DNA of 64,000 nucleotides. Origin: Candidatus Portnoybacteria bacterium (GTDB lineage: Bacteria > Patescibacteriota > Minisyncoccia > Portnoybacterales > GWB1-42-6). Positions within the stretch are counted from its first letter, which is position 1. Every line of letters begins with the position of its first letter. The translations under genes were made by a program, and so were the position numbers. Below, piece after piece: positions 16,430 to 20,890 of the stretch. The stretch is taken from positions 76,379 through 140,378 of the forward strand of contig JAQTYI010000002.1 in the NCBI GenBank assembly GCA_028688325.1. Direction: 5' to 3'. The notes under the pieces are model-generated. The model worked only from the letters and a program-made list of their open reading frames with translations, did not search any database and had not been told where the DNA came from.

Positions 16430-19108
16430 TTATTTTCCACAACACTTCTTATATTTCTTGCCGCTCCCACAAGGGCAAGGATCATTGCGCCCCACTTCCC
16501 CGTCTTTTTTCTCGGCCACAACCTGGCCAGAAATGATATTTTTAACTTCTCGCCTTTCAGCCGCCTGCTCGCTCATTATGCCGACTTTATAAATAGAGCC
16601 GACAAAGCTGCTCTGGATTGCGCCCAGCAGGCGCTGAAAAAGGCGCATGCCTTCGTTTTTATATTCCACCAGCGGGTCTTTCTGGCCGTAGGCGCGCAGT
16701 TTTACAGAATGGCGCAGATGCTCCATTTCGTCCAAGTGCTCCATCCAGAACATATCGATGGTGCGCAAATAGAACATTTTCTCGATTTCGCGCATACTGG
16801 CCTCACTGACCTCTTTTTCTTTTGTCTCGTAGGCCTGCCTGGCCGAATCGGACAAATATTTTTCCAGCTCTTCCTTGTTTTTAATTTCGGCCATCTTCTG
16901 CTCAGCATCGCTGGGCAGATTAAAGATCGCTTTGACACCCTCCTGAATTTCCGCCAGATTCCAATCCTCGCGATAATCGCCTGGCGCGTGAAAATCGATG
17001 ATCTTGGTTATTTCTTTATCGATTATTCCCAAAACCTCATCGCGCAAGCTATCGGATTCCAAAACTTCCAGCCGCTTGCGATAGATGGTTTCGCGCTGCT
17101 TATTCATCACATCGTCATATTCCAGAACATGCTTGCGAGTATCGAAATTAAAGCCCTCTATCTTGGCCTGCGCGTTCTCGATGGCGCGGGAAATCATTTT
17201 ATTCTCGATGGGCTGGTCTTCCGGAATCTGCATAACTTCCATCAGCCGTTTAATTTTATCGGGTGCAAAAATGCGCATCAGGTCGTCTTCCAGCGAAACG
17301 AAAAATTGCGAAGAGCCGGCGTCCCCCTGGCGGCCGGAGCGGCCGCGCAGCTGATCATCGATGCGCCGCGCTTCGTGGCGCTCAGTGCCGATGATATGCA
17401 AACCGCCGAGCGCGACAACTTCGTCGTGTTCTTTTTGCCAATTGTTTAAATCTCCCTCTTCGAGTCCTGTCGGCCTAACCCCTCCTAAAGGAGGGGAACC
17501 CGCATCGCCGCTCCCTCCCTTTAGGGAGGGCTGGGGAGGATTTTCATCAGGTCTTCCACCAAGAATAATATCCACGCCGCGGCCCGCCATATTGGTCGCC
17601 ACCGTCACCCCGCCCTTGCGGCCGGCCTTGGCGATTATCTGCGCTTCCCGCTCGTGGTTTTTGGCATTCAACAATTCATGCGGAATGCCTTCTTTTTTCA
17701 AAAATTGGCTTAATAGTTCATTTTTTTCTATGGAAACCGTTCCCACCAGCACCGGCTGGCCCGCGTCGTGCCGGTTTTTTATCTCCCGCGCCACGGCGAC
17801 AAATTTCCCGTGTTCGGTGCGATAAATGCTGTCGGGCATATCCACGCGCACCATCGGCTGATTGGTCGGCACGATAACGACATCCAATTTATAAACTTTA
17901 GAAAATTCCTCGGCGGATGTTAAAGCCGTGCCGGTCATGCCGGACAGTTTTTTATACAAGCGGAAATAATTCTGGAAAGTTATCGTCGCCAAGGTGCGCG
18001 ATTCTTTCTGCACGGGCACCCCTTCTTTGGCTTCCAAGGCCTGATGCAAACCTTCGCTGTAGCGGCGGCCCTGCATCAAGCGGCCCGTAAATTCATCAAC
18101 GATTATTATTTCGCCGTCTTTCACGACATAATCTTTGTCGCGCTTGAAAAGCGCTTGCGCGCGCAGCGCCTGCTCCAAGTGGTGCGCGTATTTTATCCCG
18201 CCTTCGGTATAGATATTTCCCATGCCCAAAATCTTTTCCACCTTATCTATGCCCTCTTCCGTCAAAGTGGCGGCGCGCATTTTTTCATCGAGATTGTAAT
18301 CAACATTTTCAACAAGACGCGGAGCGATTTTAGAAAAGGTCTCGTATAGTTTTCCCGAATCCTCGTCCGGCGCGGAAATTATCAAAGGCGTGCGCGCTTC
18401 GTCTATCAATATCGAGTCCACTTCGTCCACTATGGCAAAGTTATGTTTGCGCTGAGACATATCTTTCAATTCAGCCACCATATTGTCGCGCAGATAATCG
18501 AAACCGAATTCGTTGTTGGTACCGTAAGTGATGTCGGCGGCATAGGCCTCGGGCCGGCGGACTTCTTTTAGATTCGCCATCTCCACCGTAATCTCGTTCT
18601 TGTCCAACACCACGGGTTCATATATATAGGATCTTTCGTGTTGCAGGCAACCCACGGAAAGCCCCAACAAATTAAAAACCGCGCCCATCCAGTTGGCATC
18701 GCGCTTGGACAGATAATCGTTCACCGTAACAACATGCGCGCCTTTTCCTTCAAGCGCGTTAAGATATATCGCCAAAGTGGCGGTTAAGGTTTTTCCTTCG
18801 CCCGTTTTCATTTCGGCAATCTTGCCTTCATGCAAAACCATTCCGCCGATAAGTTGCGCGTCAAAATGCCGCTGGCCCAAAGCTCTTTTGGCCGCCTCGC
18901 GCGTCAGCGCGAAGGCCTCCGGCAAAATTTCATCCAGCGTTTGACCTTTTTGCAAACGCTCCCTGAGCTCCTGTGTTTTGTTTTTCAATTCCTCAACCGA
19001 AAAACGCCCGAACTCCGGTTCAAGCTTGTTTATCTGTTCAACGATGGTTTCGTATTTGGCAATGCTCCCCCCGCCCGCGTTGCCGAAAAAATTAGTTAAA
19101 AACGACAT
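16430..19108 (-). CDS. secA: Preprotein translocase ATPase SecA, with an in-frame palindromic-repeat insertion.
   Basis: Full SecA architecture (DEAD motor motifs, PPXD, HWD/HSD) and C-terminal zinc finger CPCGSGKKYKKCCG. Insert NPPQPSLKGGSGDAGSPPLGGVRPTGLEEGD encoded by 17478-17538. Confidence 0.95.
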   Translation of the reverse strand: MSFLTNFFGNAGGGSIAKYETIVEQINKLEPEFGRFSVEELKNKTQELRERLQKGQTLDEILPEAFALTREAAKRALGQRHFDAQLIGGMVLHEGKIAEMKTGEGKTLTATLAIYLNALEGKGAHVVTVNDYLSKRDANWMGAVFNLLGLSVGCLQHERSYIYEPVVLDKNEITVEMANLKEVRRPEAYAADITYGTNNEFGFDYLRDNMVAELKDMSQRKHNFAIVDEVDSILIDEARTPLIISAPDEDSGKLYETFSKIAPRLVENVDYNLDEKMRAATLTEEGIDKVEKILGMGNIYTEGGIKYAHHLEQALRAQALFKRDKDYVVKDGEIIIVDEFTGRLMQGRRYSEGLHQALEAKEGVPVQKESRTLATITFQNYFRLYKKLSGMTGTALTSAEEFSKVYKLDVVIVPTNQPMVRVDMPDSIYRTEHGKFVAVAREIKNRHDAGQPVLVGTVSIEKNELLSQFLKKEGIPHELLNAKNHEREAQIIAKAGRKGGVTVATNMAGRGVDIILGGRPDENPPQPSLKGGSGDAGSPPLGGVRPTGLEEGDLNNWQKEHDEVVALGGLHIIGTERHEARRIDDQLRGRSGRQGDAGSSQFFVSLEDDLMRIFAPDKIKRLMEVMQIPEDQPIENKMISRAIENAQAKIEGFNFDTRKHVLEYDDVMNKQRETIYRKRLEVLESDSLRDEVLGIIDKEITKIIDFHAPGDYREDWNLAEIQEGVKAIFNLPSDAEQKMAEIKNKEELEKYLSDSARQAYETKEKEVSEASMREIEKMFYLRTIDMFWMEHLDEMEHLRHSVKLRAYGQKDPLVEYKNEGMRLFQRLLGAIQSSFVGSIYKVGIMSEQAAERREVKNIISGQVVAEKKDGEVGRNDPCPCGSGKKYKKCCGK
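17478..17538. repeat. Two GC-stem hairpin units inserted in frame in secA, encoding PPQPSLKGGSGDAGSPPLGG.
   Basis: cccctcctaaaggagggg and ccctccctttagggaggg; same architecture and same PxLKGG peptide as the alaS units. Confidence 0.7.
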
Positions 19109-19148: not shown

Positions 19149-19177
19149 ATAATACCCATTAAATGTTATATTATCAA
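19149..19177 (-). promoter_or_regulatory. Sigma70-like promoter for secA (TTGATA-17-TATTAT on the minus strand).
   Basis: Reverse complement reads ttgata atataacatttaatggg tattat; the -35 sits 1 bp from palindrome copy 1. Confidence 0.55.
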
Positions 19178-19178
19178 T

Positions 19179-19216
19179 CTTGGACACTTTTACGCTATAG
19201 CGTAAAAGTGTCCAAG
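19179..19216. repeat. 38-bp perfect palindrome, copy 1 (cttggacacttttacgctatagcgtaaaagtgtccaag), abutting the secA -35.
   Basis: Perfect dyad symmetry. Core cacttttacgctatagcgtaaaagtg is shared with copies 2 and 3. Confidence 0.8.
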
Positions 19217-19258
19217 AGACAGCCGACAACAACTTCTCTATCCCTCCAGTATGGACTC

Positions 19259-19852
19259 CTACACATTAAAATATTTTTTTAATCTTTTGTCGATATCTTT
19301 AATGTCCGACTCCAGATATAGAATATCATCGCCGACTCCAAAAAAATCCGAAATAAAATCAATCTCTTTTTTGCAGTCAAATGGATAAATAAAAACACTT
19401 TTCTGAAGCTGCAGCATCCTCAAATTTTTGAATTTAGAGCGCAAAGCATCTCTGGCTTGTTTTTTATCTTCTGGTATGTCAAAAATTATTACCCGCCATT
19501 TGCCGTCCCATCGCTTATCGTTTTTTAATTCAATCCTATCGACATCATATTTTAATAATTCTTCCCGGCCTTTTTTCGTTAAAATCATCTCTGCCCGCCC
19601 ACCCCTCATTTTTCTTTTTATTAATTTTCTTTTTTCTAACCGGCCGACATATCGCCTGGCGCTTGACCGGTTGAAATTTTTCCAAGAAACATAATTTTCG
19701 TCTTTTAATAAAAAACTAAAAGCTGACACCGCGTTAGGCGCCGCTATCGCCGCCAACAAAACCCCGCCCATCCCCAAAAACTTCAGAATGGCCTTAGCTG
19801 AAAAAGCGTCCGAATCTTTATTTAATTCCTTTATTTTATCAAATATTCTCAT
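19259..19852 (-). CDS. Small regulator-like protein: hydrophobic N-terminus, winged HTH, and a C-terminal Cas2-like/PaaX_C-like ferredoxin fold.
   Basis: RRYVGRLEKRKLIKRK ... ILTKKGREELL (wHTH-like). WRVIIFDIPEDKKQARDALRSKFKNLRMLQLQKSVFIYPFD ... ILYLE closely matches the Cas2/PaaX C-terminal signature. Confidence 0.5.
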   Translation of the reverse strand: MRIFDKIKELNKDSDAFSAKAILKFLGMGGVLLAAIAAPNAVSAFSFLLKDENYVSWKNFNRSSARRYVGRLEKRKLIKRKMRGGRAEMILTKKGREELLKYDVDRIELKNDKRWDGKWRVIIFDIPEDKKQARDALRSKFKNLRMLQLQKSVFIYPFDCKKEIDFISDFFGVGDDILYLESDIKDIDKRLKKYFNV

Positions 19853-19950
19853 TTTAGTAATTCAAGTCCTTTTCAAATTGCCATCCTTATGATTCTTATT
19901 ATATTATGTATGCCATATATTGGCGCCGCGTATTTTATTATTTTAATTTT

Positions 19951-19998
19951 ATCATCCTGGACACTTTTACGCTATAGCGTAAAAGTGTCCAGGATGAT
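19951..19998. repeat. 48-bp perfect palindrome, copy 2 (atcatcctggacacttttacgctatagcgtaaaagtgtccaggatgat).
   Basis: Perfect dyad. Located between the divergent PaaX/Cas2-like gene and the 146-aa gene. Confidence 0.8.
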
Positions 19999-20056
19999 TG
20001 CCTATTCTATTATATATCTTGTACCTGTTGTACATCGACCATTCAACCTCGGCCTA

Positions 20057-20085
20057 TTGACAAGTTGATAAAAAGATTCTATACT
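20057..20085 (+). promoter_or_regulatory. Consensus sigma70 promoter (TTGACA-17-TATACT) for the 146-aa gene.
   Basis: ttgaca agttgataaaaagattc tatact. Confidence 0.7.
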
Positions 20086-20150
20086 GTACTGCGTTGACTT
20101 ATCCGGCTCTTTTTATCTGAAAATATATACCAAACCAACAAGGAGGAATT

Positions 20151-20591
20151 ATGGATGCGAAAGAAAAACAGTTCGGAGAGATTAACACCGTGCTTGCCAA
20201 AGAGCTTGAACATCACGCCAGGCCAGGCAGAAGCATGATGGGGCCGCGCTTCAAGATGACATTCTATTTTTCCTTTGCTCACCTGTCCGACGGGCGCCGT
20301 ATCAATATGGTTTCCAAGGTAACGGGAATCCCGGTTGCGGAGCTGCGCGAATACCGCGAATTCCGCAAAACGGAAATCCCGCGATTGCTCAAAAAGATAT
20401 TCTTGGAAAATCCGGATTTGGCTCCAAGCAACAAAGAAATCCAAAATGGCAGCGCCTGGGGCGATATGCAACCAGAGTTTTCCAAAAAGATGAGCGTTTG
20501 GGCAAAAAAGACCAGTATCAATTTCCACATCATCCGCGCCGTCTGGGACGAAACACTGCCCAGCAAACGCCAAAAGATCTTTGGAAATTAA
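20151..20591 (+). CDS. Hypothetical 146-aa protein with a possible internal HTH (INMVSKVTGIPVAELREYREF), expressed from its own strong promoter and terminator.
   Basis: SD AAGGAGG 4-5 nt before ATG; sigma70 promoter at 20057-20085; intrinsic terminator at 20611-20645; no recognisable family. Confidence 0.5.
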   Translation: MDAKEKQFGEINTVLAKELEHHARPGRSMMGPRFKMTFYFSFAHLSDGRRINMVSKVTGIPVAELREYREFRKTEIPRLLKKIFLENPDLAPSNKEIQNGSAWGDMQPEFSKKMSVWAKKTSINFHIIRAVWDETLPSKRQKIFGN

Positions 20592-20610
20592 AACGATATC
20601 CGAAACAGCA

Positions 20611-20645
20611 CAAGGACTGCAAATGCAGTCCTTGTTTTTTTATTT
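20611..20645 (+). terminator. Rho-independent terminator after the 146-aa gene.
   Basis: caaggactgca aat tgcagtccttg ttttttttatttatttt. Confidence 0.8.
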
Positions 20646-20850
20646 ATTTTACACAATTTTCTTATAATCTTTTTGAATACAGCAAAAATTTTGTCGGGTC
20701 GTCTTTGGCAAAGATTTCCGGAATGTCTTCATTTCATCAATTGTTTTTATTTTCATAATTTTGTGCCCATCTAACCAAACCGCGACTTTCCAATTTTCAC
20801 ATCCGCTATTTGCACCATATACCATAGGAGGCCCTATTTTCATTTTATCA

Positions 20851-20890
20851 TCTTGAGCACTTTTACGCTATAGCGTAAAAGTGCTCAAGA
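20851..20890. repeat. 40-bp perfect palindrome, copy 3 (tcttgagcacttttacgctatagcgtaaaagtgctcaaga), with compensatory arm changes (ggacac>gagcac, gtgtcc>gtgctc).
   Basis: Perfect dyad; same core; the left flank ttttatcatc is shared with copy 2. Confidence 0.8.

Follow-up and report, generated by a model that had tools for sequence, protein, structure and literature searches.

The window analysed here is a stretch of 64,000 nucleotides from a Candidatus Portnoybacteria bacterium, a member of the Patescibacteria or candidate phyla radiation (CPR), and comprises positions 76,379 to 140,378 of contig JAQTYI010000002.1 (assembly GCA_028688325.1). Its subject is a gene at positions 19259 to 19852 that encodes a winged helix joined to a Cas2-like PaaX_M domain, lies upstream of secA, and is bracketed by long perfect palindromes. 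With a probability of roughly 0.6, we consider the product to be a PaaX-type dimeric regulator which binds these palindromes, represses its own gene and controls secA in this clade. The gene, the parts of its product and the palindromes are arranged as follows, in positions of the window.

19259 to 19852, minus strand: gene of the PaaX_M-domain protein, an open reading frame (ORF) encoding 197 aa with a winged helix and a Cas2-like domain.
19709 to 19798, minus strand: conserved hydrophobic N-terminal segment, residues 19-48, consensus ILxxLxxGGxLxAAxxAPNA.
19562 to 19678, minus strand: recognition helix and beta-hairpin wing of the winged helix-turn-helix, residues 59-97, placed by AlphaFold2 (AF2), profile matches and hhalign.
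19295 to 19516, minus strand: Cas2-like (PaaX_M) ferredoxin-fold domain, residues 113-186, placed by the Pfam match, invariant columns, AF2 and Foldseek.
19424 to 19471, minus strand: helix α1 of the Cas2-like domain, residues 128-143, proposed from covariation as the reader of the palindrome centre.
19178 to 19217, no strand: pal1, a 40-nt perfect palindrome between the stop codon of the gene and secA, proposed operator of the secA promoter.
19951 to 19998, no strand: pal2, a perfect palindrome of 48 nt that lies 99 nt upstream of the start codon, proposed autoregulatory operator.
20851 to 20890, no strand: pal3, a 40-nt perfect palindrome which differs from pal1 by a mirrored change from GGACAC to GAGCAC.

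A sequence-only reading of this DNA had described palindromic repeats on both sides of the gene. These are present as pal1 and pal2, both perfect, and pal3 adds a third copy. Written as a 40-bp duplex, the palindrome is TCTTGGACACTTTTACGCTATAGCGTAAAAGTGTCCAAGA. Three occurrences of its 22-nt core were counted in the 64 kb, and none in 100 shuffled sequences (0.00 expected); all three palindromes of the window lie no more than 1.7 kb from the gene. pal2 and pal3 are duplicated together with 16 nt of flanking sequence (19939-19994 and 20835-20890, 88% identical over 56 nt, repeat family D1). Orthologues keep the order palindrome, gene, palindrome, secA over an identity range of 100% to 60%, and a site at the position of pal1 is likewise present down to 60% identity (loci L001, L013, L005, L101, L105 and L007), with only an 11/16 quasi-palindrome in the case of L007.

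Pfam assigned residues 113-186 of the protein to PaaX_M (PF20803; 71.8 bits against a cut-off of 24, E=5.1e-20), a family described there as 'PaaX protein central Cas2-like domain'. No Pfam match to PaaX_C was obtained, and the protein ends 11 residues past the PaaX_M match. PF07848, the N-terminal PaaX-type winged helix, was not matched even at E<=1. The Cas2 models scored below their thresholds (Pfam PF09827 15.5 bits versus 23.8, TIGR01573 17.1 versus 24.5), and only weak matches with E of about 1e-3 came from the Cas2 models of PADLOC. The Cas2/PaaX C-terminal signature previously seen in the C-terminal half of the protein is thus a Cas2-like domain, but of the PaaX_M and not the PaaX_C type. 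The window protein is 100% identical to the hypothetical protein PHT44_02675 of a Ca. Portnoybacteria metagenome-assembled genome (788,852-bp contig), while an exact look-up of its sequence returned no record.

AF2 was run with 51 and with 104 sequences, and both models agree on a helix at residues 62-74 followed by a beta-hairpin at residues 78-91 (strands 78-83 and 86-91), which together constitute a winged helix, on a linker helix at residues 93-105, and on a beta-alpha-beta-beta-alpha-beta domain at residues 119-182 with a predicted local distance difference test score (pLDDT) of 86-96. In a Foldseek search of the PDB with the AF2 model, E. coli PaaX (8a39) ranked first (E=2e-6, 185 aligned columns), followed by Rv0674, 3l09, and then winged-helix regulators and several Cas2 structures. 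For the Cas2 structures 3exc, 5zyf, 2ivy and 8ia4, target TM-scores were 0.45-0.65. Alignment of the family profile with E. coli K-12 PaaX by hhalign paired residues 59-185 with PaaX residues 51-174 at a probability of 92.5% and placed the recognition helix and wing on PaaX residues 51-90. Among the PDB sequences, phmmer found nothing with the window protein, and the family profile found only weak winged-helix and Cas2 matches; those to the winged helices AspA, AF1382 and MarR had E values of 0.002-0.05. G95, D116, W119, R120, D125, Q150, S152 and C160 are invariant across 104 homologues. The earlier description of a stand-alone protein with a winged helix and a Cas2 fold outside a CRISPR locus was therefore essentially right, the winged helix on the evidence of the AF2 models and the weak profile matches, the Cas2 fold on that of Pfam, AF2 and Foldseek.

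Homologues of the protein are variously recorded as 'Transcriptional regulator, PaaX family', 'phenylacetic acid degradation operon negative regulatory protein', 'CRISPR-associated endonuclease Cas2' or 'hypothetical'. Read literally, the source annotations would make it an ordinary phenylacetate PaaX or a CRISPR Cas2, and both names are indeed in use for its relatives. Scores, domain content and gene context refute this, and we attach practically no weight to it. The NCBIfam PaaX equivalog model TIGR02277 gave 27.5 bits, about a tenth of its cut-off of 264.55, the Cas2 models remained sub-threshold, and the PaaX_C domain is missing. The 64-kb window holds no CRISPR array, and neither cas nor paa genes were found among the 13 neighbouring genes scanned, which agrees with the former statement that cas genes and CRISPR arrays are absent from the vicinity. 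Genes of the paa type were likewise lacking around homologous loci.

When 1.84 billion cluster representatives were searched with a profile, 1,318 family clusters (at 50% identity) had E<=1e-30 and 3,765 had E<=1e-10. Proteins of the best 150 clusters are mostly 170-240 aa long. At least 591 loci of the family are present in species-representative genomes, and those fetched belong essentially all to the Patescibacteria. In several genomes at least two divergent paralogues are present. No second gene copy was found within any one locus. Among 2.9 million viral contigs there was only one relative, at positions 3001-3426 of L112 (IMGVR_UViG_3300031949_000100), with 32% identity over residues 57-195. 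A link to defence or phages was rejected on the basis of this single viral relative, the weak PADLOC matches to Cas2, and a PHROGs search of the protein that gave nothing useful.

The gene and its flanking palindromes are associated throughout the family. In 85 non-redundant homologous loci we recorded zero-loop palindromes, defined by complementarity in at least 13 of 16 pairs about the centre, that lie no more than 300 nt from the gene. Of these loci, 45 had such a palindrome upstream and 52 downstream of the gene, and 35 had one on each side. Their density was 1.86 per kb in the gene flanks as compared to 0.095 per kb elsewhere in the same loci, a ratio of about 20. By a stricter score, 41 of 77 flanking palindromes were perfect without a loop, and the median length was 38 nt. 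Most loci without a strong palindrome had a quasi-palindrome that is symmetric only in the outer arms and the centre. Two copies within one locus are nearly identical. The arms are lineage-specific and also differ between the paralogues of one genome, as in the pairs L010/L020 (MHUW01), L018/L057 (MEYR01) and L043/L086 (CAZKLP01), which have different cognate palindromes.

In contrast to the variable arms, the centre of the sites follows a common pattern. When all half-sites were aligned on the dyad, C was found at position -3 in 95%, a purine at -4 in 93%, and A at -1 in 82%, resulting in the consensus RCnA|TnGY with the common forms GCTATAGC, GCGATCGC, ACTATAGT, ACGATCGT, GCCATGGC, GCGGCCGC and GCATATGC. 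The central 4 nt were self-complementary in 58 of 75 sites (77%), as compared to 1/16 expected by chance.

Every column of the protein alignment was screened against DNA positions -1 to -20, with statistics that ignore phylogeny. The highest scores were those of the pair formed by E128 and base -2 (z=17.5) and of that formed by D135 and base -4 (z=11.1), at a phylogenetic background of about z=5-6; the next-best partners of base -4 were R138 (z=7.0) and K131 (z=6.6). Over 77 loci, glutamate at residue 128 went along with T or G at base -2 in 118 of 119 half-sites, and any other residue with C or A in 33 of 34. Residue 128 was Q, H, V, K or S at CCATGG centres and I, M, V or N at CATATG centres. 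These switches recur across several sequence clusters and occur even inside one cluster. In the AF2 model, residues 128, 131, 135 and 138 lie on one face of helix α1, a pattern to be expected if this helix reads the centre of the site. For the outer arms and the recognition helix, the same screen gave background-level signals only (A65 with -11, R66 with -16 and R67 with -19, z of about 3-5). From the covariation and the family-wide flanking, specific recognition of the adjoining palindromes by the protein appears highly probable.

These palindromes could in principle be recognised as RNA. The Cas2-like domain has an RRM-like fold, and RNase activity has been reported for some Cas2 and VapD proteins. 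The domain might therefore bind or cleave stem-loops of 18-22 bp in 5'- and 3'-untranslated regions. Downstream and solitary copies do occur where transcription is expected, for example 4-45 nt past stop codons, and predicted hairpins are very stable: as single-stranded DNA, the palindromes of the window fold with -20 to -25 kcal/mol (z = -11 to -13). Differences mirrored between the two arms, dealt with below, also preserve pairing. However, among the 36 mismatches of imperfect sites, G.U on the sense strand is not favoured (6 GT/TG versus 9 AC/CA), the central 4 nt, which would be the loop, are symmetric in 77% of the sites, and weaker sites lose the symmetry of the mid-arm but keep that of the centre and of both outer arms. 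Many of the upstream copies overlap the -10 box or precede it and would not be transcribed. Rfam contained no family matching the palindromes; a known RNA family was rejected here, since the sole hits, to mir-287, reached 24-26 bits against a threshold of 80. The absent G.U preference, the symmetric would-be loop, the pattern of the weak sites and the missing Rfam match all argue for duplex DNA over an RNA hairpin. Binding of RNA hairpins is very unlikely and the least favoured of the nuclease, architectural and RNA explanations considered in this study.

A connection of the upstream sites with promoters was seen across the family. Of 44 upstream sites, 17 had the extended -10 motif TGnTAnnnT in the direction of the gene, at a distance of 11-37 nt from the centre; in the opposite direction it was present at 3 of 44, and in random windows at 5%. 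In the window, both pal1 and pal2 are next to such elements.

19946 to 19954, minus strand: extended -10-like element TGATAAAAT, overlapping the end of pal2 that faces the gene, 99 nt ahead of the start codon.
19149 to 19177, minus strand: secA promoter-like sequence directly past pal1, from a consensus scan.
16430 to 19108, minus strand: secA, identified by Pfam SecA domains on the orthologous neighbour in related loci and by conserved adjacency.

The sequence following pal1 is TTGATAATAT, which may be read either as an extended -10 element TGATAATAT at 19168-19176 or as TTGATA-17-TATTAT with TATTAT at 19149-19154. The gene lies upstream of secA with a gap of 150 nt, which bears out its earlier placement directly upstream of secA. 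Since the palindromes abut promoter-like elements of both the gene (pal2) and secA (pal1), repression of the gene by its own product and control of secA suggest themselves. We propose that a symmetric PaaX-type dimer binds the palindromes of about 40 bp around its gene, with one winged helix on each outer arm, while the conserved centre RCnA|TnGY is read by helix α1 of the Cas2-like dimer. Binding to pal2 would repress the gene, repression seeming more plausible than activation, and binding to pal1 would provide the control of secA. pal3 is followed by the same TGATAAAAT on the minus strand as pal2, with no convincing gene ahead of it within 20649-20850; the only ORF there encodes 64 aa and has no Pfam match. 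The pal3 element may drive a short transcript that ends at a bidirectional terminator near 20610-20635.

PaaX of E. coli, the phenylacetyl-CoA-responsive repressor of the paa operon (PDB 8a39; TIGR02277/COG3327), is the known protein to which the window protein is most alike in its working. In both, an N-terminal winged helix, in the window protein as modelled by AF2, precedes a Cas2-like PaaX_M domain with a WDGKW motif. The operator of E. coli PaaX, TGATTC-N27-GAATCA, spans 39 bp, and PaaX is known to repress the promoter of its own gene (PMC9493321). The proposed sites of the window protein and its relatives measure 34-48 bp and are similarly dyad-symmetric; pal2 and pal1 of the window lie at promoter-like elements of the gene itself and of secA. 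Yet the window protein is no PaaX orthologue by domain content, gene context or equivalog score: it is devoid of the approximately 130-residue helical PaaX_C domain that senses phenylacetyl-CoA, so that the alignment stops at residue 174 of 316 of PaaX, it stands outside any paa gene context, and with an identity of about 18-21% it attains only a tenth of the TIGR02277 cut-off. Its sites also differ from the PaaX operator in being perfect palindromes throughout, in having a centre that covaries with helix α1 of the Cas2-like domain, and in being located on both sides of the gene. Furthermore, its N-terminus is much more hydrophobic than that of PaaX.

Regulators of the MarR and PadR type are also winged-helix dimers that bind palindromes overlapping their own promoters, and weak profile and fold matches point in their direction. 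In contrast to these, the dimerisation module of the window protein would be the Cas2-like domain, which apparently touches the DNA itself, the length of the operators is roughly double, and a second site is found downstream of the gene. The fold of the protein and the dyad symmetry of its sites indicate that it probably is a dimer. Sequence-specific binding of duplex DNA is favoured because of the symmetric centre, the outer-arm and centre symmetry of weak sites, the abutting -10 boxes, and the similar span of the PaaX operator.

Several observations count against a regulator acting at promoters. No ligand-binding domain is evident in the protein. The downstream palindrome is kept in roughly 8 of 25 inspected loci in which the next gene is convergent, and therefore it cannot always be a promoter operator. 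Solitary palindromes 4-22 nt past stop codons and between convergent genes (L094 2869-2908, L102 2275-2326 and L104 506-549) do not fit promoter control either. In addition, an N-terminal 19-residue hydropathy window of at least 1.6, which is transmembrane-like, was found in 98 of 118 homologues, the acidic residue D125 of Cas2 type is invariant so that catalysis is conceivable, and differences between copies were mirrored in both arms in 20 cases versus 18 unmirrored, a count biased by the selection of good palindromes.

The solitary copies were obtained from a metagenome scan for the Portnoybacteria-type core, which yielded 18 contigs, 8 of them with the gene next to the palindrome. Several of the remaining contigs extend for kilobases around a palindrome that stands alone. 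The one in L094 lies past a 488-aa gene, which we take to be cysS, and ahead of a separate terminator consisting of a hairpin and a T-run. Those at L095 4551-4592 and L110 6989-7030 are found about 95-195 nt upstream of a tRNA-Met/tRNA-Met/tRNA-Asp cluster; this position is orthologous in related metagenome contigs, and their outer arms differ. On the 1.3-kb contig L100, which has no family gene, a palindrome with the centre GCCATGGC (133-162) and one with the centre GCTATAGC (219-252) are 57 nt apart.

Sites that bracket the gene irrespective of the orientation of its neighbours, together with solitary sites in 3'-untranslated regions and between convergent genes, could be explained by an architectural or roadblock DNA-binding protein that loops or insulates the DNA or stops read-through at the palindromes, perhaps tethered to the membrane by its N-terminus. 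The hydrophobic N-terminus noticed in the sequence-only reading is real, the best 19-residue Kyte-Doolittle window of the window protein averaging 1.99, and the C-terminal flank of the segment is strongly basic. The centromere-binding winged helices AspA (E=0.002) and TubR (E=0.063) were among the weak profile matches. The orientation-specific enrichment of extended -10 boxes beside the upstream sites speaks against such a role. AF2 predicted no single membrane-spanning helix at the N-terminus but two short broken ones (residues 19-27 and 41-48) with pLDDT of about 50-68, and these helices were still of low confidence in the second run with 104 sequences. Moreover, the stretch is about as long as residues 1-50 of PaaX, which form the soluble helices 0-2 before the recognition helix, and in some homologues it is only weakly hydrophobic (about 1.0-1.2). 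Residues 19-48 may form helices 1-2 of a winged helix like that of PaaX, or they may serve as a membrane anchor. On balance, an architectural function is rather unlikely.

Mirrored differences are exemplified in the window by GGACAC/GTGTCC versus GAGCAC/GTGCTC. Contacts with a protein alone do not predict them, which points to pairing between the arms, in the form of a hairpin or cruciform or through correction of quasi-palindromes by template switching. They bear on an enzymatic function of the protein, as do D125, which like Q150, S152 and C160 is invariant in 104 sequences, and centres that resemble restriction sites (GCGATCGC, GCGGCCGC, CCATGG). D125 belongs to an FDIPE motif and, as far as the register can be judged from the hidden Markov model (HMM) alignment, appears to coincide with the acidic residue that ends β1 in Cas2 (HMM position of about 8). 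The protein could accordingly be a palindrome-specific nuclease or recombination factor. Its winged helix would target the palindrome, helix α1 would read the centre, and the acidic site of Cas2 type, located at the dyad, would nick or cut there and thereby seed, maintain or duplicate palindromes across the genome. Gene and palindromes would then form a selfish or domesticated pair, a CPR-wide, self-flanked analogue of RAYT genes and their repetitive extragenic palindromic (REP) sequences, with the Cas2-like domain as an active sequence-reading module. Such a palindrome-making system would account for the mirrored substitutions that keep the palindromes perfect, for solitary copies at gene 3'-ends and between convergent genes, and for the insertion of about 0.9 kb with an orphan gene that is bounded by a duplicated palindrome and its flank in the window.

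RAYT genes are likewise single-copy chromosomal genes situated between their own species-specific palindromes, and REPs also occur as solitary intergenic copies, often at gene 3'-ends. However, the window protein has no HUH/Y1 transposase fold, and no other transposase or recombinase domain was found in it with Pfam, NCBIfam, PADLOC or PHROGs. Its palindromes are perfect, loopless and 34-48 nt long, and their symmetric centre argues for recognition of a duplex and not of single-stranded hairpins. As judged from the window, the loci and the metagenome contigs, the copy number looks low with few copies per genome: the three in 64 kb are all local, and 8 of 18 metagenome contigs carry the gene beside the palindrome. 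The place upstream of secA is kept at 60-100% identity and the solitary sites of L095 and L110 are orthologous, so that there is no sign of recent mobility. The lack of a second gene copy in any locus and the single relative in the viral contigs also disagree with a mobile pair. The resemblance to RAYT systems is limited to a gene flanked by its own palindromes.

The ferredoxin-like beta-alpha-beta-beta-alpha-beta fold of Cas2 and its stand-alone relative VapD, the (F/Y)DI motif with an acidic residue ending β1, and the Q-x-S-V-F motif recur in the window protein. Different from Cas2 and VapD, its Cas2-like domain is fused to a winged helix, scores below the threshold of all Cas2 models, and is accompanied by neither cas1 nor a CRISPR array. 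Where these proteins show sequence-independent protospacer binding and nuclease or toxin activities, sequence-specific reading by helix α1 is indicated here. The repressor PaaX of E. coli is also acidic at the position aligned to D125. A nuclease or recombination function is hence unlikely, and cleavage at the dyad by the invariant aspartate is doubtful. The previous suggestion of a nuclease or regulatory role acting on the neighbouring hairpins was well founded with regard to the palindromes, on which the protein very likely acts according to family-wide flanking and helix α1 covariation; regarding the mode of action, the evidence favours binding of duplex DNA and transcriptional control over cleavage of hairpins.

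The surroundings of the gene are of housekeeping type. The neighbours scanned encode deoxyhypusine synthase (DS), an energy-coupling factor (ECF) transporter component, TM1506, flavin mononucleotide (FMN) reductase (FMN_red), an amidohydrolase and a GNAT protein, continuing past the gene with secA, Ham1, CYTH, ASCH, two NUDIX genes and SecD. A survey of homologous neighbourhoods for recurring partners, proposed together with the sequence-only reading, yielded secA within the Portnoybacteria-level clade only. Distant homologues adjoin a major facilitator superfamily (MFS) transporter, an FtsW-like gene and others, with no fixed partner. The secA gene of the window has a Gly/Pro-rich insert (…DENPPQPSLKGGSGDAGSPPLGGVRPTGLEEG…) at roughly residues 515-560. 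One further ORF is located between pal2 and pal3.

20151 to 20591, plus strand: orphan ORF146 in the insertion of about 0.9 kb bounded by pal2 and pal3, outside the conserved module.

The insertion (19999-20850, with ends taken from repeat family D1 and gene order) is absent from L106 and L107, each of which has a single palindrome at this place. ORF146 is preceded by a near-consensus promoter (TTGACA-17-TATACT, 20057-20085) and followed by an intrinsic terminator at 20610-20635. It was rejected as a recurring partner in a cassette, being an orphan with only two proteins in a database of 5.8 billion.

Searches of the literature, within the library covered, retrieved no paper on PaaX with Cas2, on PaaX with Patescibacteria, or on this family or its palindromes, although one may exist, and those on Cas2-like domains with winged helices and on CPR transcription factors with palindromes retrieved nothing relevant. 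What appears to be new, as deduced from the sequences, is a short, CPR-wide PaaX_M-domain regulator, its self-flanking cognate palindromes, and an apparent DNA-reading role of its Cas2-like domain.

CPR genomes have few recognisable regulators, and to our knowledge almost nothing has been reported on gene control in these bacteria. If each paralogue binds the palindromes adjoining its gene, operators and regulons could be read directly from sequence, and the rules linking E128 to base -2 and D135 to base -4 constitute a testable recognition code. A Cas2-fold domain that reads DNA sequence would bear on the origin of Cas2 and PaaX, and a self-flanked nuclease system, should the unlikely enzymatic explanation apply, would expose a pre-CRISPR function of the Cas2 fold. 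If the regulator proposed here acts as outlined, secA, the motor of protein export, would be under dedicated control in this organism.

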